Assembly (NCBI GenBank): GCA_000934665.2
Contig: JYFJ02002370.1
Location: 1-58,159, forward strand
Reading direction: 5' to 3'
From: Catajapyx aquilonaris
Lineage: Eukaryota
DNA length: 58,159 nt
The notes under the pieces are model-generated. The model did no database searches. It had not been told where the DNA came from and was given only the letters and a program-made list of their open reading frames with translations. A program made the position numbers and the translations under genes. Positions 4,050 to 50,850 of the stretch are shown here, in pieces (positions within the stretch are counted from its first letter, which is position 1; every line of letters starts with the position of its first letter).

Positions 4050-4770
4050 AAAAATCACCGTTAAGATTGTGGACTTTAGCATAAATAATAATGAAGCGTA
4101 ACACCAATAATGAAGCGGCGGACACTAAAGTAGAAATTGGCATAAATATGATTACACTTGGACAGTGAATTTCCGTGTGGTCTGATCAAAATTGCTACGA
4201 CAACGTGTATAATTATGCTATTTAGCAGGACATTAATTTTAATAATGAACCTGAGGGCCCACACAAACCATATTGTACCTGTACAGTAACATTACACGTG
4301 CAAGGTCACGGGTTGTGCCTTGAGTAACTGTCCACCGCATCTCATTTACCTATTGATTTAATAATTTGTCTGAATGTCGACTGTATGTAATGGTGTGTTC
4401 AAATAATCCCAGAGATGATACAATTAATTCAATTGCCAAACTTGCAGTTCATGATAAGAGGATAACAACCCAACGTCTTTCCCTCTCTTCGGTGTCCGTC
4501 GTTCAGCTCCATCTGTCCCACGCTCACACCTTTGTATCTTCTGATAGCCAGATAGCTATAATGATATGGCCAAGGGGGACAGGAATCGTAGTCGAATAAT
4601 CTAGGTTTTTTTCAGTCGGTCGGTGCGGTGTATTCATCTCTAGAATCTCTGAATTAATGTAATACCACTGTATTTCATTGCACTGTTACAAGTACAGATT
4701 TTTCGTGTCCCTGAGGAGCAGTTAATTGGGGCTTTATATGAAGTGACTTTTACAGACATTTTATCCACAA
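4050..4770 (-). pseudogene. Possible remnant of a viral (chuvirus-type) envelope glycoprotein C-terminus
   Basis: Broken frames give INCSSG..QWYYINSEILEMNTPHRP..LAIS, then hydrophobic IWFVWALRFIIKINVLLNSIIIHVVVAIL and ISTLVSAASLLVL. The order resembles the chuviral G C-terminus. Confidence 0.25.
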
Positions 4771-5249
4771 TTGCTGTCAATAAATGATCGTAAGCTTTCA
4801 GATTCCTTTGCAGTTGACTTCATTGCAAGGTAATATACAGTTGATTGGCGCCTTTTTTTTTCATTCCTGTTGGTTCATTTCGGGTGAGCCTCTGCAGTGG
4901 ACGGACACCATGCCACGTCAGGTGGTGGACTCGATTGCTACCTCCACCTTCCAGAGCAAGCGAAGAATTGTTGCTTAAAATTGGGTCACTGGGTTATGGT
5001 AGCGGTTTTTTTTGTGGCGCATACGTTTTGAGATACATTTGTATAGCTTAACTGTGTGTTTGGAACTTCATTCAAAGGGTTAGCATCCCAGTTAAGAATA
5101 TCTTGTTGGTGGTCGTCCTGCGGTGGAATTAATTACATGGCGAGTTCATAACCGATAATGTTTGATCATTTTTTTGGGGACATGCCTGGTCGTTGGTGAT
5201 GGAGATGATTTTATAAACGGTATCAGTTTTGGCGATTTATGTAGGAATC

Positions 5250-5650
5250 ATGCATTCGTTCTTTGTTCGGTTTCTTTCTCCATAACATACATTAGGTTCT
5301 TGACCGAGCCAAAGTACCCACATATACTTGTCGTTAATATGGCGTCATTATCGTCATTTGCAATGAAATAAATATGCAAATTTTTGGGATTTTGATCAGA
5401 GGCAGGAATTAACGTCCTGGTGAAATGATAGATTTGACTCTGTATTTGAAAGTGGGCACAAGAAGAAGTCATCTGAAAGCACTGTTGTACCCCCTGGTAC
5501 CATTGAGAAACTCTAGCTGATTTACATTCGTCTTTGGTTTCTTTCCTGACCCAGACCAGTAGCGAGTGTAGAAGCCAAGGCATCTTCTGCCTCATAAAGG
5601 CGAGGAGATCTTGTAGTCGTCGGGGGTTAACATCCTCCAGTTGATCCACC
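5250..5650 (-). mobile_element. Degenerate Helitron Rep N-terminal fragment
   Basis: ORF 5248-5649 contains QQCFQMTSS..FQIQSQIYHFTRTLIPASDQNPKNLHIYFIAND, close to the Helitron NSCFQMTSFG..FKIQGQIYH..LLP..D..PKFLQIYF block. Confidence 0.7.
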
Positions 5651-7039
5651 TCTAGTTCACGTGATATACTGGAGCAGTACGTGCCTTTTAAATTCAGGTG
5701 AAAGTGTGCAGTAGAATCACCCCCTCCATATGCCTTTCTTTTATTTATCTATGTATTCATGAAGCTGCCCTCACGTAGGGTTCTTTTTCTTATTCCCTTA
5801 TCATTCACTCCTATCTATTGGGTCAGATTAGAATCTGAGGCTTCCGTACAGGCAGGTTATGACTTGTTCCAGCACTCATCGGTGTCATTGGTGTCCTTCA
5901 ATGAACCCCCAGTTGTTTTTTGAGAAAACATGCACAACTGGCAAGGTGTGAAACAGATTTGTAGTGATGAGCATCTGGCACAGTTTGTCCCATATTTAAT
6001 TGACCTGGTTAGGATTTCCCCATAATAATAGTGAGCATTTTTCTTTCCCACTCAAAGACCAACTTGTACGAGTAAGAGGAGGAGGGAAGGCTGGACGAAT
6101 AAGTCTTTTCCTGTATCGGTATATAAAATCTTGTTGGTCAACTGCTGAGGATAAAATACAGTATTGCCTGCATCGTCGTGTGAGTGGATGTTTCACTCAT
6201 CAATTTACTTATGAGGTAATGACAGATTATATTATCATTAAATACAATTATTGCTTCATTGCCTTTGATATGGAATGTTCTCGATTGAAATATTTAATAC
6301 AAAATCAATGTTGGCCATGGTAGAGACATCAGTCCAAGTCCAAGTTTGCCAGTTTAGTGTATTCATTTCAGTACCACATGAATATTCTCACCTTTTTATC
6401 ACGCAAATGTTCTAAAATATTTATTTTAATAACTGAGGTTGTCCCCGTTCACATCCACTCAAAGGCCTATAGGCTACAGGTTGTAAGGAATGCTCCAATA
6501 AACCATCACTCAAGCAATCAAACCTGAAATTATTGTGTAATCAGTATCTGTTCGGCCATTCTGGTTGGCATCCTGCTGTTGCAGGTCTACCTTTTTCACC
6601 TCTGTGATTAGGGCAGTTTGCATAAAAATTTTGTTGTGAAGGAATGCTTTCAAGAGTTTTTAGCAGGTGGGAGTGACCTTTTGTGCCTTTCCGTTTTTTC
6701 ATGAACAGACGACTGCATTTCTCCACCTCCTGTCAACAAGATCATTTTTATTAATTTTTCCTCAACTCAGATGGGAGGCATTTTTTGTCTGCTTTTCAAG
6801 ATAAAAAGTGTTGGTCCTCTCTGACAGCAACAAAGTGCGCATCATTCTTGTACGTAATTCTATGTCATTTTATGCAAGTGTTGGGTTACGGTTTGTGCTG
6901 TGGTGAGGCATCCTTCTAAGCGTGGATGACCTCTTCTGAGATGTAAAAGAAATGCATAACAGTCTATTTCCATATGTGTCTATAAATGTGATGGGTCAGA
7001 TAGTTTTCACAATATGTTGTTCTCTCCAGTGTGGAATTC

Positions 7040-7480
7040 TTTTTCAGGAGCCGGGGGGCCCGAAATGCTGGGTTGGTCGCTTGATGTTCCTGTGTGCCCA
7101 AACTTCATGGACTTTGAGCATATTTAGATGGTCTGGAATCTGCATGTTGCAGAATAATTCGCAGCTGTTTCCTCTCGAATATTTAAAAAGTTTGATCCAA
7201 AAATTGTCGTCCTTCATGTGTTTAATAAGGAGGAAGAGTTGACTAAAAGGCAAGAGTAGGTATGGGCCTTTTCTCTCCGGTTCTCATCTCCCTCTACTCG
7301 CGATCGTCTCGTCACGAAAGGTATCAGACGAATCGCACTTTGGAGTGCCACGAGACTTTCCCAACTCACATGATTGCCTCTTCCAAAGGCGAAAATGTGC
7401 ATATATGAATTGCCGTGTATTTGTTACCCATCGACGGTATGTGATCGTGATAAGCCCACGGCAGATTGGCTATCACTACT
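7040..7480 (-). mobile_element. Degenerate integrase-like DDE transposase fragment (IS3EU-like)
   Basis: FWIKLFKY..FCNMQIPDHLNMLKVHEVWAHRNIKR resembles the FWIxLF..IQxxL..WNxHxIR motif of eukaryotic integrase-core transposases. Confidence 0.3.
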
Positions 7481-8433
7481 GTGATACATTTATCCTGTAA
7501 CTTCAGTTACCTAATCAATGAAGGGTTGGAAGTGGTTCAGGGACCCACCAAAATTTTGGCGCGTCTCAAAGTGCGCCACCAAAATTTATTATTACTTCCT
7601 GTTGCTGAATATATTGCAACATTACTTGTTGGAACTTAATATACCCTGGCGTTAGACGCGTTTGAGCTGTAGGTGGTTGATGTTGTAGTGCATTGGTTTC
7701 GTCCATATTCGTTCAGAATGCTACTTACCAGACTCTCTTCGGACAGGTGGAGCTACACCAGACAGGAGCTGTTCGATCTCCGATAAAAGTCTCCGCGACA
7801 ACCAAAGTCAGTCAATTTTTGTGGGTTAACGTTTCATATTGAATTCTGACACCTCACGAGTGCATTTGAATCCGGCGCGTTATTACTTGTATTTTTGAAG
7901 CATGATTCACATGGATATTAAGAATCGACTGAATTCATTTTCTGTAGTATGTCTATTGGAAGTACGTTACAGCAACAAAGCACACGGGCGTCATCCTCTT
8001 TCATCGGTTCTTGCGTTCATCAATGGCGTTTGTTGTCATTGTCTGCGTCCGTTGATCCTATGAAGGTCCCGACCCGAAAAAGATTGGGAATCACTGTCAC
8101 AGAGGGACCGTCCTTCTCTGCCTTCCTTTTGTGGGTTTTGTGGTAGTTCAATCACCTTTTACATCATTTTTTAATTCTCGAATCTCCCCACTCATAACGT
8201 GGTAATTTAAAAATAAATACATGTTTGACTATTCTGGACAAATGGTCATTGTTGAGCCAATGATATTGTCTGCTGGTACACGTTTTCAAACAGTATTTGA
8301 CCACTTTCGCAGATGTCCTGCTTGATAAGCTGCCTGTCTGATGGCCACTGAAGTGCTCACAGCTGTGTGACATATCATTTAGGAAAATTCAATGCCAAAC
8401 CTCCACTTTCATGTGCATGTATTATGCATTAGG

Positions 8434-8434
<1 letters not shown>

Positions 8435-8484
<50 letters not shown>

Positions 8485-8500
8485 TGATGATGATGATGAT
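8435..8500. repeat. Compound microsatellite (AAT)n(GAT)n
   Basis: Directly visible. It explains the poly-His/poly-Tyr ORF 8409-8594. Confidence 0.95.
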
Positions 8501-8509
8501 GGCGGGATA

Positions 8510-9500
8510 TGTGATCCAGGTGCCTAATTTCATGTCGTTTTCCCTTTAGCATGATCCTCCATTTACCTAAGGTGTGACATACCATATGAATCAAGCATAG
8601 TAAGCAGGGTGGCCCTCATAATGCATACAATACCGTGACATGAAATTCCCCAGCAGGTAACTAATTTGACATCACTTGAATGTACTACTGGTACTGAAAA
8701 GTTAGGATCATTGGTATTACCATAACATGGTCTCGAATAGAATAGGTGTGCATTATCATCAATATTCTGCTTTCAGGCTTGATGATCTATTCCCGATTGT
8801 TTTGTTCATGACCCTTTCCTTCTTTGATATTAAAGCTTGGTGTTCGCAGCTTCTTCGTGACTATCATGATAAGGGCAATGTCTCATGATGGGGCTAATGC
8901 ACCAGGGCTAGACAATGAAAATGGTGTGATAATGCAGCCTAAGAAGAAGTGATGCAGTTACCAGACATTATGGCCCGGCCAGACTTGAGTGTCTGATGTG
9001 CGCCTGATATTTTCAGTTGGTACGCTGTATATTGAAGCTTTCCATTATGGCAAAAAGGCAATGGGTAATTGTGAATTTGGTATTCCCCCACGCCTTTCTG
9101 TCTTAATAGCTATTGCCATGCCATATGTTCCATTTATATACAATATCTTTTAACGACCATTGGAGCAAACTTCTCCTCACAAGTCGAAGAAGAGATCATA
9201 ACCAGTTCCGTGCATTGTGAGGCTGAAGATGTGTTGTGATGATGTGAATTAAGTTCAGTCAAGTGGCGAGGTATGCTTGAGTCTTCACTACTGTATTATC
9301 TGATGCGTCCGTCTTCGTTTTCTTGAGTAGCATTGTGGTCCTTGTAGGTCCACTATGATCCTTGGCCTTCGTCTCCATATCCTCCTTGTGATGTAGGTAG
9401 TAGGGCTTGAGCATGACTGTAGCATGACGAACTCCAAATCCATGGCTTCTTCTCTGTCCTGTTCATTGGCTGCAATGCAACTGAGCAGAACAAGGTTGAC
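8510..9500 (-). mobile_element. Possible highly decayed PIF/Harbinger transposase
   Basis: Remnants in Harbinger order: RRIWRRRPRI, SPGALA (cf. FPGxxGAIDG), KEGKGH (cf. NRKGxH), LPAGEFH and MLKGKRHEIRHLD (cf. LKGRFRxL). Many stops. Confidence 0.25.
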
Positions 9501-9999
9501 TTCTTCTTTGTTAGTCCCAATTATAATTTTAGCCGCTTTCAACCTCACTTTTCTATGGCACATAATAACTCAAATGTTTTGAAATAACAGTGGTGCCATT
9601 AAGGGATGTTCTTACCTGACAGAAATTTCTAGTGTCAACGTTGTTCTGGACCGTGATATTAATCATAAGCATCCGAAGGTCATTCTTCAGGCTCCCAAAC
9701 TCCTGGCAGTAATATTTAATAATATTAATATTTTAACAAAATTATCGTTCTTGAACAAGATGCGACTCAAAAAATTGTCCATCATTAACTAGTGTCTGAA
9801 AAATTAATATTAAAATTCCAGCCGCTTTTTAGTGCCTTTTGTGGCCATTTCAAGTGCAAAATGCAAATTATAGACTATTGAGGCCTGGTTTTCACTATTT
9901 GGGGGGGACAGATATTTAAAAACTGAGTTAAGCATTTTTGATATAATATTATTTATGAGCAACAACTTCCAATAAAAATTATTGCTGTTAACTGCAAAA

Positions 10000-11615
10000 T
10001 CAATCCTGGAAGGTGTAGTATTCCCGTCAGAGTTTGTATGAGTTTGCCCTCTGCGTCCTTTGATTCGGCGGAGAAGAGTTCAATCATCTTATTGGTTTTG
10101 ATATCACCGAGAGCAATATATTGTTAAGTGCATGTTAGAGAATGCTCGCAGGGGGTGGATGGGGGAATTTATGTCCCTAACAAGTTTGGGTAGGTCCTTC
10201 GAGGGTTGCAGGTGGCGTTGACAGTGACTTGAGAGATGAGGCCTCAAGGAAGGGTAGGTGTCCCATAATGAAGCGATTGGCGCAAAGACTCGGGAATCCG
10301 TCGCACGCAGCATGATGGGTATAAGGAAACCGGGAGGCCTCCAATGTTGCTCGAGGTTTGTAAGATAATTGCTATCTCCTCTGGCTCTCGAGACCTGATC
10401 TTTCTCCACGCGAAATGAAGCCTTGAGAAAGCTTCTATCATAGCAACACAATAGAAGGGTAAAGGTCCTGAGTCTTCTTGAACTGCTCTTCGTTTTCTCC
10501 CTCCATCTATCCCACCTTTGCGTCTTCTATAGCCAGAAAGCCATTGTAGCTTTGGCTTCTTCCAAATCTTCGTGAGCTGCAGTGCAACCTGATGTGAAGA
10601 TTCCATAAAGATCCCCTAGGAGTCATCTAAACGGATCATTAGCTTGAGCAGGCAGTCTTGAAGCCTTCTTCAAATCGTTGGGCACTTCCACTCCCTTCAG
10701 ATAATATCTTCTGGCATATTCCAGTAGAATCGTCGATTTCCAGGATTCTTCAGGCTTAATGGGCACCTTGAGTGCTTTAGACCACTGAGCGAGAGATCGC
10801 AGGAACCCATCTACATACGCTTGGTTCCCTTCTGATGGACCTGGGGCAATTTCATCTGGTATGTTTAAGAGAATCACCCGATTATCACCCTGGCCAGGGA
10901 TAGAAATCAGAGCTCCGACATCAAAGGCAGCAGCAAGGATGAGTGATACGTGTCTGATCATTGTTCGAGTCATTTTAAGAAGTCGCTTTCTTAGCCATGA
11001 TTCTCCTAAGGTCATCGATTGGAACTTTGATACGTACTTACGAATGAGACGTGTTTTGTTCTATGGCCGTCTGTTATAGTCTCATATCTCACAATATTGA
11101 GTATATCCATACTGATGTTCTCCCTCTAACTAGATCAATACAAGACCACTGAATACGTCCCTAGATAGACATCTCTATTATTTAGGCCATCAATCATAAT
11201 ATGGTTGCCGGCGAAATACAGCAGATTGTGTGTTAGCCGGAATATTCTTATGAACTCTCTGTCAGCTCCGACTCGAAACAGCAACTCTTCCATATAGCCT
11301 CTCCGCTCCCACAGCCGCACCAAGTCCCGGCGATCTGCTATTCCTCTAACTTGATGTCTACTGACGGTCCTGATGTGGTCCTGAGGTATGCCAGTTCCGC
11401 CACTCTGTGGACCTTGTACACGTATTAATTTGCGTGTCGTATGCGAAGCCTCACTTAGTGATTTTCTGCGATGAAACATCGTCGCGGATATACATTCATC
11501 TTTGTCGTTGGCCTAGATCCATTGCTTCAGTTCTGTTGTGCAGAGTGGTAACGATTCCCTGGACGAAGTCCCTTCCCTGGACAGTTCACTATTTCATCGA
11601 TGGAAAATAACTTAC
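10000..11615 (-). pseudogene. L: Endogenous viral element: L protein (RNA-dependent RNA polymerase) of a Mononegavirales/Jingchuvirales-type virus, internally deleted and frameshifted
   Basis: Motif C ISIPGQGDNRVI (canonical GQGDNQ; Arg codon cgg is one change from cag). Motif D region KPEESWKSTILLEYARRYYLKGVEVPNDLKKASR. Downstream SSNIGGLPVSLYPSCCVRRIPESL (cf. LGGx..RxxPDPxTE) and DLPKLVRDINSP (cf. LxxDPxSL). Upstream VYLGTYSVVL..DLVRGRTSVWIYS resembles the L N-terminal region. Confidence 0.85.
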
Positions 11616-13539
11616 ATGATTAAGAAGAGACGACGTGACGTTTCACTAGTGGACTAAACATTGAACAGTTGCAGGCCATGTTCCAAATATTGGGCTTCTT
11701 CTACACCTGTATAGTCGATATTGGGAAATGTGTTCATTTCCCATTTGTTTCGTCTGATTCTTGTTTTATTCCAGTAATAAATTTATCATCCGTTTTCCCC
11801 TTTTGGGAGCATTGTCACACTTGTTAGTAGGTGCCGTGCGAGGAAAATGTCTTTGTTAATGCAGCCTTCTCCGTATGGTTTGCACCGACCCATGTCCCTA
11901 TGGATCGTGGCTGTAGAAGGATGCGCTAGTTCGCCATATGGCACAATAAGTACAGTGTTTTAAGAAAAGGTTTACAAAGTATGCAAATTAAGAAGAGGCT
12001 GTCCAGCCGAACAGACAGGGTGGACATCATTTTTAACAGATATGCACAAGTTAACAAGAATATTGTGGTTGCAACACGTCGCGATATATGCTACTTTTCA
12101 GGCAGTGCATTTTCTTAAACACTTTTTCAGCTGATTTGTCATGTTCATACGAGCTAATGAGAATGTCAGTAATTAAAGGCGTGAAATAAAAGTATTCAAA
12201 ATACTCTGCCTATAGGAATAGTTGTCTTGAGAATGTGCTCATTGTTATTTCCGTTGTTGGTTGCAGTGATTATTTCTGACTTATCCTGCCTTCCTTCAAT
12301 CTTCAAATGTTACTGAATGTCGAAGGGTCATAGTTTAATCACTTCCGTCATCAGAGTGAGGGAGAAACCTCACCAAAATGGAAGTGGCCACTCAATATTA
12401 ATTTTATTGAGTTATACGCAGTTGTTGTGCCCATCCAGTGACCTTATTCGAAAGTCATGCAGCAAGATTTTAGCCGTTTCATGCAGGATCGCAGGATGTT
12501 GTCGTTTGGCCACGCTTGAGTCCTTCAATTGTGATGGTGCCTGTGGTCACCTGTTGCCGAATTATACAGATTATGGGTTATGACATGTCTCGAAGAACAA
12601 TTTTTGTGGCGTCGCACGAGATATTTTCAGTGAAGATGGCATCCAAGATATCCATGGTTAGAGTAAATAAATGGAAGTAAAATTTTAATACTCTCCGTCA
12701 GGATGTTATTTCAGCCACTCTCCTCCCATGTTTCTAACCCCTGTATTGGGATAATCACGTTCATTGTATGAAATATTGGCTCCGTGCTAATGGTAAATAA
12801 TAATGTGTGAATGGTACGTGCATGACGTCAATTTCATTGCAGTGTCGTCCTGATTGGTTGATCAACGTCCGGTGATTTTTAGGCTGGGGGGATGTGACAT
12901 GCTGGTACCCTTGTTGGTGATGTGCATTTGTGTAACCACCACCGGACAGAAATGGTGGACCATTTTTTGTGCATTGTCAGCCAATCGTTAGCTTGTTGAT
13001 TTTTGACATGAGCAGTCTCACAGTGTTGTTGCTGAACACGTGAAATGTGTCCGATACTTGTTGTTACCGTAGATTGCATAATATATTTCAATAAAATAGC
13101 AACAGCTTTATTCGTGGAAACTTATGGAAATTACCTAACATATGTTTGTGTGCGGCCTTCAGAGTGATACCAAACAGCTGTACTACAATCACAGTGCTGT
13201 ATTATCCCCTTTGAGAGTATCTACTGGGTTTGTGAAGGGTGTCAAATGTAGTAACAATGTTGACTCCAAGAACACTGTCATATTGTTCTCTGCATCTCTG
13301 CAGGAATAACTCGTGCATATGTCCAGGTGATATCGACTGGATGGGGAAAAGCGGACACTAATAGTTTCAGTCGGATTATTATTAGATGCAGTAGAGTGTT
13401 CTGATTGTGGGCGTCAGATCAGTCGCTCTTTTTTTTTGCGGGTTCTATGTGACTATACGGACACAAATTGAGTGATGTTCTTTGCCATATCTAGACTGTA
13501 CATCTACATAATTTTGGTTGGTAGTGTATCAGTGACTAT

Positions 13540-18389: not shown

Positions 18390-18965
18390 CCTTGGAGTCT
18401 AATTATGGACAGGAGCTGACAGTAGGGCACTACCCAACTGTTGTCAACATTGAGATGTATTGGTCTGGACTTAATTTCAACTGACACCCGTCCATTCTCT
18501 GGAGAACGACGCCTATATGTTGGGTAACCATTTTGTCCGGTGCAAGTCTCATTCACAGACATCTCTTTTGCCATTCGATGGAGTACATATGACAGGCGCT
18601 GGCTTCTCCTTAGTCAGTAAGTTCATAAGGCTGATGACTTTCAACCTGAAGACCCTGCAAACGATGTCATACCTATCGTAAGACTTCTGATTAGGCATTA
18701 GCACATCCGTTATGTCACTCCAGTTTGGATTGCAAGTAAAAGTAATGAAAAGTTCAGGCCGACGATACTTCCTGACATACGTCATGGCGTCTTGTGTCCT
18801 TTCATGCATGTATCTCGGTCCGACGGTGAATGATGATGGAAGGATGACCAGTTGACCAACATTTTGCTCATTACCATCCGCGTTTATGGCGTCCATCAAA
18901 TGAATATAATTTTCAACATGTTCAAACGCTATTATTCTTGGCAATTATATGGCCTACGAGGGATA
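18390..18965 (-). mobile_element. Helitron Rep/helicase fragment (Helitron_like_N region)
   Basis: ENYIHLMDAINADG..VGQLVILPSSFTVGPRYMHERTQDAMTYVRKYRRPELFITFTCNPNW, then GQNGYPTYRRRSPENG..VDNSWVVPY. Confidence 0.93.
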
Positions 18966-25592: not shown

Positions 25593-26855
25593 CATCTATT
25601 CATTTCGATCGATATGAGGTTTGACGGAGAAGAAGAGGGGCTGGAGAGGTATCAAAAAAGGAAAATCTTGATAAGGCCAACGGGGGCTTTGATTTCCTGG
25701 TGAATGAGCTTCAGCAGATAGATAAGAGTAAATGGCAAACTTACTTGCGGCGCCTATCACTTTCAACCCAGAACTAACTATCCTGTCTATTTCCCCCATC
25801 AATTCATTGGATACATATGGCATTTATCTGCCACACCCGTTACATCTGGACTTTACAATGCAGGAGGTAGAAGAAGCGTTAAAAAAACTTAAAATCCGTA
25901 AAGCTACAGGGCCTGATCTAGTACCAAATGAACTATGGTCTGTTCCATCAACAAATCTAAGGGAAATACTCTTGATGACCTTTAATAAATTTCTAAATGA
26001 GGCGATGATACCAGAAGAATGGGTCCTACTAAATGTCATACCAATTTTTAAGGGAGGAGACCCTCTTGAAGTGACAAATTATCGCCCAATATCTCTCCTG
26101 AATAATGTCGCCAAAATACTCACAGCAATTATGGAGACCAGAATAAGAAAATGGGTAGAAGACTGGAAGATCTTACCGGAATTCCAAGCGGGGTTTCGCC
26201 CAAATAGAAATACTGGGGATCATCTATTTACGTTAAATGTTATCATTCAAAATTACACATCCAAACCGAGAGGCAAACTATATGCAGCTTTTTTGGACCT
26301 TTCGAAAGCTTTTGATAATGTGTCCCACCAGAAACTGTTCGACTCACTGGGTAAGTTACGATTGGGGGGAAGATTAATTTATTACACTAATACGAAAGAT
26401 TTATGAAAATGCTTCAGTTAATGGACAGGGAAGGGAACAAAATATTAAAATTACCAAAGGAGTCCTTCAAGGTGAGCGATTATCCACCATACTATTCAAT
26501 CTGTTTATGGCGGATCTGGCAATGATATGGGGAAAAAATGAAGTACCTGGAGTTAACTTGGGCCCAGGAACAACTGATATCCATTGCTTGCAATTTGCAG
26601 ACGACCTTATTCTGGTAGCTGATCAACAGATATACCTACAGAGATTGATTAACTTAATGGCTGACTATCTGATTGATAAGGGATTAAGTGTTAATCTGAG
26701 TAAGACTAAAGTGGTAATTTTCAGAAAAAAGGGGAGACTTCCACAAAAAGCTAAGTTCCTGTGGCAAAGTAATATACCTATTGAAATCAGTCCACAATAT
26801 AAATATCTGGGGGTTATTTTCTCTTCATCAACATCATTTAGAAAAATGATGGAAG
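25593..26855 (+). mobile_element. Non-LTR retrotransposon (LINE) reverse transcriptase fragment, truncated at both ends, one frameshift
   Basis: KATGPDLVPNE, PIFKGGD..NYRPISLL, FQAGFR, FLDLSKAFDNV, KGVLQGERLS and LQFADDL motifs in ORFs 25732-26406 and 26507-26860. Flanked by a GCAT direct repeat. Confidence 0.95.
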
Positions 26856-26894
26856 CATGATCTTTTCCCTTGTCGGTCAAAAAAGACTGGCTTC

Positions 26895-27470
26895 CTTGGA
26901 GTCTAATTATGGACAGGAGCTGACAGTAGGGCTCGACCCAACTGTTGTCAGCATCGAGATGAATTGCCCTTGACTTAATTTCAACTGACAACCCTCCATT
27001 CTCTGGAGAACGACGCCTATATGTTGGGTAACCATTTTGTCCCGGTGCAAGTCTCATTCACAGACCTCTCTTTTGCCATTCGATGGAGTATATATGACAG
27101 GTGCTGGCTTCTCCTTAGTTAGTAAGTTCATCAGGCTGATGACCTTCAACCTGACGACCCTGCAAACGATGCCATACCTATCGTGAGACTTCTGATTAGG
27201 CATTAGCACATCCGTTATGTCACTCCAGTTTGGATTGCATGTAAATATAATGAAAGGTTCAGGCCAACGATACTTCCTGACATACGTCATGGCGTCTTGT
27301 GTCCTTTCATGCATGTATCTCGGTCCCACGGTGAATGATGATGGAAGGATGACCAGTTGACCAACATTTTGCTCATTACCATCCGCGTTTATGGCGTCCA
27401 TCAAATGAATATAATTTTCCACATGTTCAAACGCTATTGTTCTTGGCAATTATATGGCATGCGAGGGATA
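26895..27470 (-). mobile_element. Helitron Rep/helicase fragment (duplicate of 18390-18965)
   Basis: ORF 27054-27449 carries ILPSSFTVGPRYMHERTQDAMTYV..FTCNPNW and is followed by GYPTYRRR. Confidence 0.93.
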
Positions 27471-49760: not shown

Positions 49761-50039
49761 AAAATTTAGGTTTTAGGACAGAGGATTGGCATTGCTACTC
49801 GCCCTCCGGCCCGATCAGGGCCCTAAACCTAAACCGTATGCACAACAATTACACAACAAACGGGGAATCCCATGGGTAGTAAACCGCCCACGGCCCCGCC
49901 GGAGTGGGCAACAAGCCCCCGGGGAAACCAGGCCGGCGCAGGGCGCAGCCGACAAGGAGCCCAGGGGGCCCCACCCAAACTGAAACCTAATCCTCCTAAA
50001 AACAGCGCCCCGTCCTCCCAGGCCCGGCCACTACTGCAA

Positions 50040-50632
50040 GCCGCTATGTATAAGTCAGCAGTTTCAGAGCAATATTTCTCAAATTCTGCTATGTCAATAC
50101 TGTATCCGCTAGCAAGTGTTCTTAAAATGATGCCCAAGCGTTTGATGAGGATTTCATCAACACCGGTTATATCTGAAGCCAAGGTAGGATTGCAGACAAA
50201 CTTCCGAGCCGTATTGCCATCATTGCTCGTACCGAATCCTGGTTTCGGGATGTCGACCAGAAGTCCCATTTCATCCCGGAAACTATCTTGAATGACCTTT
50301 TTTCGGACCTCAACCCGCTCTTTGTCAGGCTTTCGAATTTGCCAAGATTGCATTTCTAGCCTGTACGCGACGTGCAAGATGCACTCAAAGCACTTAATCC
50401 ATGCGTGCAGGCTCGATATCCCCAGCGTCAATGCGGCATCGTTCGGTTCTTTTCCACGGACAAGTTGTAAATTGTTCATCTGCTTAGGAGTCGCGCCACA
50501 AACGTGACAGTTCTGCGGCGCCTGATTCATAAGAACACTGCAAATTTTTCCCTCGATCATGCTGAGAGCTAGCTCTGGTTTGACATGTATTTCGCGCCCT
50601 TCTACTTGTACAACAGTAGGAGACAATTCCAA
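50040..50632 (-). mobile_element. Transib transposase core fragment (RAG1-related)
   Basis: LSMIEGKICS..NCHVCGATPKQMN..LGISSLHAWIKCFECILHVAYRL..MGLLVDIPKPGFGTSNDGNTARKF. Confidence 0.92.
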
Positions 50633-50635
50633 TAT

Positions 50636-50850
50636 TATTGTGTTCCTCCAGCCGGGCAAGGCCTTCCCGGAGATCGCCCTTAGGCGGCAAGTAGACGTTG
50701 ACTAAGGTGAACTCCAGCTCTCCCGATCGAATCGTGTATGCCTTAATGATGGGGCTCGACAGGGTGACCAGGCTGACAACCCTGGTTTCCCTAGCGTAAA
50801 CGACCAAAGCCACCGACGCCTCCTCCGAAGAAGGTATAGGTGCCTTAATT
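50636..50850 (-). mobile_element. Non-LTR retrotransposon APE endonuclease fragment
   Basis: ALVVYAR..EFTLVNVYLPP is an APE-type endonuclease motif. Higher GC than its neighbours. Confidence 0.55.

Follow-up and report, generated by a model that had tools for sequence, protein, structure and literature searches.

Fossils derived from the polymerase (L) of mononegaviruses are a well-known class of endogenous viral element (EVE). Polymerase-derived, nyamivirid-like EVEs are described from the isopod Armadillidium vulgare (Theze et al. 2014, PMC4231630), and eEBLL-1 of Eptesicus bats, an endogenous bornavirus-like L element (EBLL), is described as keeping an intact frame of 1,718 codons (PMC4865735); a vertebrate genome screen is reported to have found no nyamivirid EVEs (PMC11089739). 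The element analysed here lies in a 58,159-nt stretch of DNA (the window, by which we mean that whole stretch); it changes no concept concerning this class, to which it adds an undescribed lineage. We are highly confident that it is a non-retroviral EVE, that is, a partial DNA copy of the L of an extinct or undiscovered nyamivirid-like mononegavirus, lying on the minus strand of a transposon-rich region of a eukaryotic chromosome and now a dead pseudogene. A first-pass annotation had proposed that part of a mononegavirus L was endogenised here and has lost motifs A and B through an internal deletion, and this proposal is supported by the results below; the strand, a second and larger gap, a frameshifting repeat insertion and a 3′ truncation were absent from that account.

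Similarity of the locus to mononegavirus L proteins

The L signal occupies the minus strand, where collinear pieces of mononegavirus L run from ~11341 to 10019 with an open frame reaching up to 11512. The extent proposed earlier, 10000-11615, coincides with a block of raised G+C, which is mostly 0.44-0.53 over ~10000-11600 versus 0.30-0.37 in the flanks. The GDN-containing motif C of Mononegavirales L is present as GQGDN at 10895-10881 (minus strand), within the stop-to-stop frame 10623-11060, and the GQGDN(R) reported by the first-pass annotation is found to extend to 10878. A profile of 1951 positions, made from 29 full-length L proteins (27 long representative matches from the exhaustive search described below, plus two tapwovirus L), was compared with the six frames of the window. 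Positions 10946-10548 correspond to profile 659-792 with 127.9 bits (E 1e-40), and 10483-10268, in a different frame, to profile 783-854 (E 3.5e-7); five more collinear minus-strand pieces each scored above 1000 of 1000 shuffles. The strongest of these matches covers the motif D block and following conserved L blocks that had been claimed from inspection of the sequence, including ..IKPEESW.. (10760-10740), which we take to be motif D. The further L blocks claimed downstream are likewise present, at 10471-10268, 10277-10164 and 10111-10019, and each beats 1000 of 1000 shuffles. A HMMER comparison with Pfam Mononeg_RNA_pol (PF00946), the check suggested by the first-pass annotation, was borderline (E 2e-6 to 3e-6): the frame 10623-11060 reached 25.6 bits (E 3.2e-6), just under the curated cut-off of 27, and the same core with its TGA read as X reached 26.4 bits (E 2e-6), again a narrow miss. 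On the strength of the sequence comparisons as a whole, we regard the homology of the core to Mononegavirales L as secure despite the missed Pfam cut-off.

Protein searches were made at several depths. A word-indexed search returned two proteins among 388 candidates (44% identity, E 1e-16), both of which are tapwovirus L (Wenzhou tapeworm virus 1 and Taeniapi tapwovirus). An exhaustive search of 1.84 billion representative proteins returned 96 matches at E<=1e-3. Of these, 22 reach E<=1e-10, no match reaches 1e-30, and the top one has E 8.9e-16 with ~42% identity. The aligned region in the 27 matches of at least 1600 aa is residues ~580-830, and all seven of the long matches that were looked up carry PF00946. 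Among the 69 shorter matches, 68 carry Mononeg_RNA_pol (E<=1e-3), 66 of them above the Pfam cut-off, and only one of the 96 was shown to be something other than L (P0093, a WD40/STAND protein, E 4.6e-4). Tblastn of the core region gave 36-45% identity to many L proteins, and a search with a 13-L profile returned 3 proteins only. The named relatives comprise the L of Wenzhou tapeworm virus 1 (Tapwovirus), Beihai rhabdo-like virus 4 (Berhavirus), Soybean cyst nematode nyami-like virus and Socyvirus heteroderae. A GDN segment closer to a cellular or transposon protein would have spoken against the first-pass annotation; this was looked at, and nearly all of the checked matches among the 96 are L, so that we reject the idea that the GDN block comes from a cellular or transposon protein.

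Two of the representative matches, both from outside the window, join L sequence to other domains. P0057 (354 aa) carries Mononeg_RNA_pol joined to a piggyBac-type transposase domain, and P0014 (1240 aa) carries L domains joined to a bornavirus N (BDV_P40) domain; both are probably gene models over other EVEs.

Anatomy of the fossil and the gap at motifs A and B

Read in the sense of L, and hence in descending coordinates on the minus strand, the element retains ~376 of the 1951 profile positions in seven collinear pieces, which occupy three frames and span L residues ~130-950. The stop-to-stop frame of the first piece is open for 57 codons upstream of it (11342-11512); the profile search detected no similarity to L in this stretch, while the raised G+C runs on to ~11600, and it may be further L N-terminal sequence. 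The first piece proper (11132-11341) corresponds to profile 127-196 and to ~141-207 of the Soybean cyst nematode nyami-like virus L, scoring 9.2 bits versus 4.1 for the best of 1000 shuffles, which upholds the N-terminal-like segment that had been placed upstream of motif C. Against single L proteins (phmmer) it aligned to residues ~126-205, best with Beihai rhabdo-like virus 5 (E 0.013), and its ..YFAGN.. matches F.GN in the consensus of 13 aligned L proteins. The first junction (11089-11131) consists of 43 nt without L similarity, standing in place of profile 197-514 (~320 residues). It is followed by two pieces from the region before motif A. The first of these (11044-11088; profile 515-529) holds an R.(Y/W)Q.A.E block in a third frame with one internal stop, and scores 2.8 bits versus -0.3 for the best of 1000 shuffles; the second (10959-11036; profile 534-558) holds a QSMT...L.KRL.KM block and shares its frame with the GDN block.

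At the second junction (10947-10958) four codons take the place of profile 559-658, with the frame kept. These ~100 residues, which hold motifs A and B, are absent at the locus: the QSMT block gives way to profile 659 after four codons. The missing segment corresponds to residues 571-671 in the L of Soybean cyst nematode nyami-like virus, 564-663 in that of Wenzhou tapeworm virus 1 and 549-649 in that of Beihai rhabdo-like virus 4. In these three reference proteins it contains ..LDFSGWN.. or ..FDFSKW.. together with ..EG(L/M)(R/K)QK.WT.., and we take the ..DFS.W.. and EG.(R/K)QK.WT blocks to be motifs A and B. The six frames of the 58,159-nt window contain nothing that matches profile 559-658, in agreement with the earlier remark that the two motifs are not visible, and the fusion that had been placed near 10950-11000 is found where the QSMT block (11036-10959) joins profile 659 (from 10946), four codons apart and in the same frame. 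Motif A (..D..W..) and motif B (EG.RQK.WT), as they occur in Mononegavirales L, are thus both missing. The element is derived from the Mononegavirales L family and is not a working member of it, and we conclude that it cannot encode a polymerase.

The limits of this gap would be different if motif B had been degraded and not deleted, so that ESWLRKR... just before the junction were a remnant of E.W.EG.RQK.WT and only motif A with its surroundings had been lost. Two sets of alignments can be read in this way: (i) tblastn with P0008, P0009 and P0010 runs contiguously from 11006/11003 onward with motif B, with gaps of 2-5 residues, and sets ESWL on the first residues of that motif (E(A/S)W(F/L)EG); and (ii) the phmmer alignments of several matches begin at query residue 17-20. 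The profile, however, sets these same residues on the QSMT block, where they score 14.1 bits and the best of 1000 shuffles reaches 2.1. The agreement with that pre-motif-A block extends to QSMT, L, KRL and KM, and residues 542-561 of the Wenzhou tapeworm virus 1 L align to it at 50% identity (tblastn), whereas G, Q, W and T, which are invariant in motif B, do not occur here. A degraded motif B is accordingly improbable, and we keep to the reading in which both motifs are deleted and the QSMT block precedes motif A.

Beyond the second junction, the core after motif B (10566-10946) carries GQGDN and ..IKPEESW.. and continues to profile 786, with an in-frame TGA at 10625-10623. It is interrupted by a frame-shifting insertion of 94 nt (10472-10565), made up of a host repeat fragment (10487-10565) and one copy of a 14-nt duplication. 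L similarity resumes at 10268-10471 (profile 787-854, E 3.5e-7), where a ..GGLP.SLY.. block is recognised; this piece was also recovered as second segments of the tblastn alignments. A weak piece in another frame (10164-10277; profile 856-893) reaches up to the L(I/V)(K/R)D block, with 2.6 bits versus 1.2 for the best of 1000 shuffles. The last piece (10019-10111; profile 914-945), again in another frame, has iE 0.0047 and 5.9 bits versus 2.4 for the best of 1000 shuffles, and was also recovered by tblastn with P0009. L similarity stops here, and a second high-copy repeat fragment (9953-10014) abuts the truncated 3′ end. Three of the pieces are individually weak (the N-terminal one and those at profile 515-529 and 856-893, at 2.6 to 9.2 bits). 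The lesions amount to at least five frame changes, several in-frame stops, two internal gaps, one repeat insertion and the 3′ truncation. A single frame of ~2000 codons with capping and methyltransferase domains was not found; the pieces end at profile 945, and the six-frame profile search found no secure L match beyond that position in the window.

A possible extra piece lies 8 kb past the truncated end, at 2049-1849 on the minus strand, where profile 974-1036 is matched in the right order (E 0.0052 among 129 chunks; 8.4 bits versus 5.2 for the best of 1000 shuffles); the conserved block expected next is not recognisable. If this piece is real, the fossil has been split by ~8 kb of later insertions. 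Two other candidates, 4822-4616 (profile 1380-1446, E 0.13) and 5631-5503, do not follow the order of L and were taken as chance matches.

Integration, host repeats and decay

The virus-derived sequence is contiguous with host DNA, as expected of an EVE, with transposon-rich flanks and with host repeats both inside and beside it. Contigs of four runs were compared with the locus. In each of two DNA runs a single contig of 1878 nt covers 9900-11650 with zero differences; a third run, from the same sample, covers 9900-11650 in two contigs with a break at the repeat. The assembly is in this respect reproducible, but the agreement is not independent, since the one sample behind these runs may itself have supplied the window. 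Contig depth at the fossil equals that of the flanks. Since contiguity is seen in contigs of runs from one sample, possibly the source of the window itself, we considered that the sequence might not be integrated at all, being contaminating viral cDNA, an assembly chimera or a GDN-bearing cellular or transposon protein. The equal depth argues against this, as do the high-copy host repeats inside the element; the stops, frame changes and gaps are incompatible with a replicating virus, and the matches counted above, with one of 96 shown to be other than L, speak against a cellular or transposon protein. Together these leave very little room for any of the three, and we proceed on the basis of an integrated copy.

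Recognisable transposon fragments occur on both strands of the surrounding DNA. In 140 other frames of the window, every Pfam match was to a transposon domain: two Helitron-like ones on the minus strand, a reverse transcriptase on the plus strand and a FLYWCH domain with a weak score. The two Helitron_like_N fragments (18552-18944 and 27057-27449, both on the minus strand; E 3e-28 and 2.5e-21) are closely similar, and that at 27057-27449 adjoins a fragment of non-LTR reverse transcriptase on the plus strand (25732-26857), an arrangement that points to nested transposon insertions. A role of the element as a source of piRNAs antisense to L mRNA, as suggested by the first-pass annotation, would be hypothetical: a piRNA cluster should show dense small RNAs of 24-31 nt and transposon fragments that mostly share one orientation, and those recognised here include Helitron-like fragments on the minus strand and a reverse transcriptase on the plus strand. 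A frame of 290 residues on the minus strand at 49832-50701 had no Pfam match; its nearest protein-atlas clusters, by language-model features, are RAG1-like (RAG1_RNase_H, ZnC2, ZnH2; scores 0.92-0.95), which suggests a fragment of a Transib/RAG1-like transposase. Protein-atlas look-alikes of two transposon frames, each with few records, pointed to no clear host phylum, being from Porifera or Chordata in one case and from Arthropoda or Nematoda in the other. No other viral gene was found in the window, either by Pfam in the 140 frames or by tblastn with the other ORFs of Beihai rhabdo-like virus 4 (from a 10.7-kb contig), which gave no match below E 0.4; the fossil is L-only. Rfam gave 0 matches in the window. 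The only tandem repeat near the element is a perfect (AAT)16 at 8435-8482, 1.5 kb from the fossil.

The two host repeats were characterised from contig depth. The sequence 10501-10568, inside the fossil, falls in high-copy depth bins (10490-10607) with a summed contig depth of ~4100-8100 versus ~30 elsewhere, and many other contigs match it. Beside the fossil, 9953-10014 has a summed depth of ~2200-2400 versus ~30, and the other contigs diverge from the window beyond 10014. A run made from a different sample, under the same species label, also contains copies of both repeats; within the window, a self-comparison of 8500-13000 against the whole revealed no further copies. Other copies of the 10501-10568 repeat go on with A/C-rich tails beyond 10562-10567. 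The first repeat sits exactly between the two frames of the core and is flanked by an imperfect 14-nt duplication (10473-10486 versus 10567-10580, 12 of 14 alike). Among 1996 random pairs with equal spacing, 1.6% score at least as high as this duplication, and its two copies, when translated, fall on the same positions of L (A.(H/Q)ED). We read the 94-nt insertion as a host repeat fragment that was inserted later with a target-site duplication, and we attribute the frame shift in the core to it. The second repeat starts where L similarity ends and its other copies differ beyond 10014, and for these reasons we consider the fossil to be truncated at about L residue 950 of ~2000. The nested host-repeat insertion provides a relative time marker.

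Viruses of this kind have no DNA stage, so that a host reverse transcriptase would have been needed to copy the L RNA. From what is known of EVEs, an enzyme of a host retroelement would have turned this RNA into DNA and inserted it in the germ line, after which the copy would have decayed neutrally. A fragment of non-LTR reverse transcriptase lies 15 kb from the fossil. Neither a poly(A) tract nor an outer target-site duplication could be defined at the element ends, both of which have been eroded or truncated. The gaps inside the element could have arisen after integration or could have been present already in the copied RNA, as a patchwork produced by a defective viral genome with internal deletions or by template switching of the host reverse transcriptase. 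The second gap has features that would suit a deleted template: it is clean, it keeps the frame, four codons separate the blocks, and no host repeat lies at either junction. A kept frame is nevertheless expected one time in three by chance, and in an element with frame changes, stops and a repeat insertion, later deletions need no special pleading. The usual form of a defective genome is a single deletion, and two gaps together with a 3′ truncation are unlike it. Viral DNA made from the defective genomes of RNA viruses is, on the other hand, reported in insects (PMC5857290). On balance, a template that already carried the gaps is a possible but less probable origin, and, because the element has so many other lesions, we somewhat favour genomic deletions after integration. 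A more specific form of the template explanation, in which the fossil keeps an ancient defective nyamivirid genome or a vDNA-type product, with three L segments joined before integration and motifs A and B excised in frame, is rather unlikely; if true, it would constitute a germ-line record of defective RNA as a substrate of reverse transcription outside insects.

Virus lineage and comparison with described elements

The position of the fossil was estimated from a tree (IQ-TREE, LG+C20+F+G4) built on the 191 columns of profile 659-853 in which the fossil retains a residue. Its 39 rows are the fossil and 38 L proteins chosen from the similarity matches, with no chuvirus or bornavirus L among them. 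Socyvirus heteroderae and Soybean cyst nematode nyami-like virus together form the sister group of the fossil (ultrafast bootstrap 94, SH-aLRT 75), and an earlier quick tree of 31 rows gave the same sister (SH-aLRT 91). The fossil falls within a clade of 22 rows (94/91) that holds every named nyamivirid in the tree, namely Berhavirus, Tapwovirus, Socyvirus, hymenopteran orino-related virus and Hangzhou Nyamivirus 1, and it stands apart from a clade containing a xinmovirus (98/91), from the rhabdo-like rows and from the Arlivirus (lispivirid) row. Support for the clade is moderate. None of the starred branches includes the fossil, whose own end branch is long, at 1.28, and the 'nyamivirid' clade also takes in a long-branched peropuvirus. 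Judged from 191 columns and with a long end branch, the fossil L groups within Nyamiviridae as sister to Socyvirus. The first-pass annotation had left the choice among xinmo-, nyami-, lispi- and chuvirus-like lineages; the nyami-like option is retained, and the xinmo- and lispi-like options are disfavoured by a tree in which chuvirus L is not represented. Its suggestion of a possibly undescribed lineage agrees with the identity values: the fossil is at most 38% identical to any L found, and on this ground we regard the lineage as undescribed.

The element documents a past infection of the host lineage by a nyamivirid-like virus that is ~38% identical at most to any L in the 1.84 billion representatives, and it extends the sampled diversity around Socyvirus. 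Orthologous loci, if found, would give a minimum age for the virus lineage.

Comparison with the nearest known L proteins and EVEs places these features in context. Socyvirus L, on the nearest branch, is 37.7% identical to the window copy over 191 aligned columns, and the two share the GQGDN, ..KPEE(S/T)W.. and ..GGLP.SLYP.. blocks. Relative to Socyvirus L, however, the window copy keeps only about a fifth of the protein: it is without motifs A and B and residues ~208-526, it ends at ~958, and it is broken by stops, frame changes and a host repeat. The EVEs of Armadillidium vulgare are also polymerase-derived mononegavirus fossils in an invertebrate genome, and are reported to group with nyaviruses and soybean cyst nematode virus (PMC4231630), a likeness that we draw from their published description. 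The bat element eEBLL-1 is likewise an L-derived mononegavirus EVE; as described, it is intact over its 1,718 codons (PMC4865735), whereas the element in the window is fragmented and lacks two catalytic motifs, which makes co-option of the window element as a polymerase impossible.
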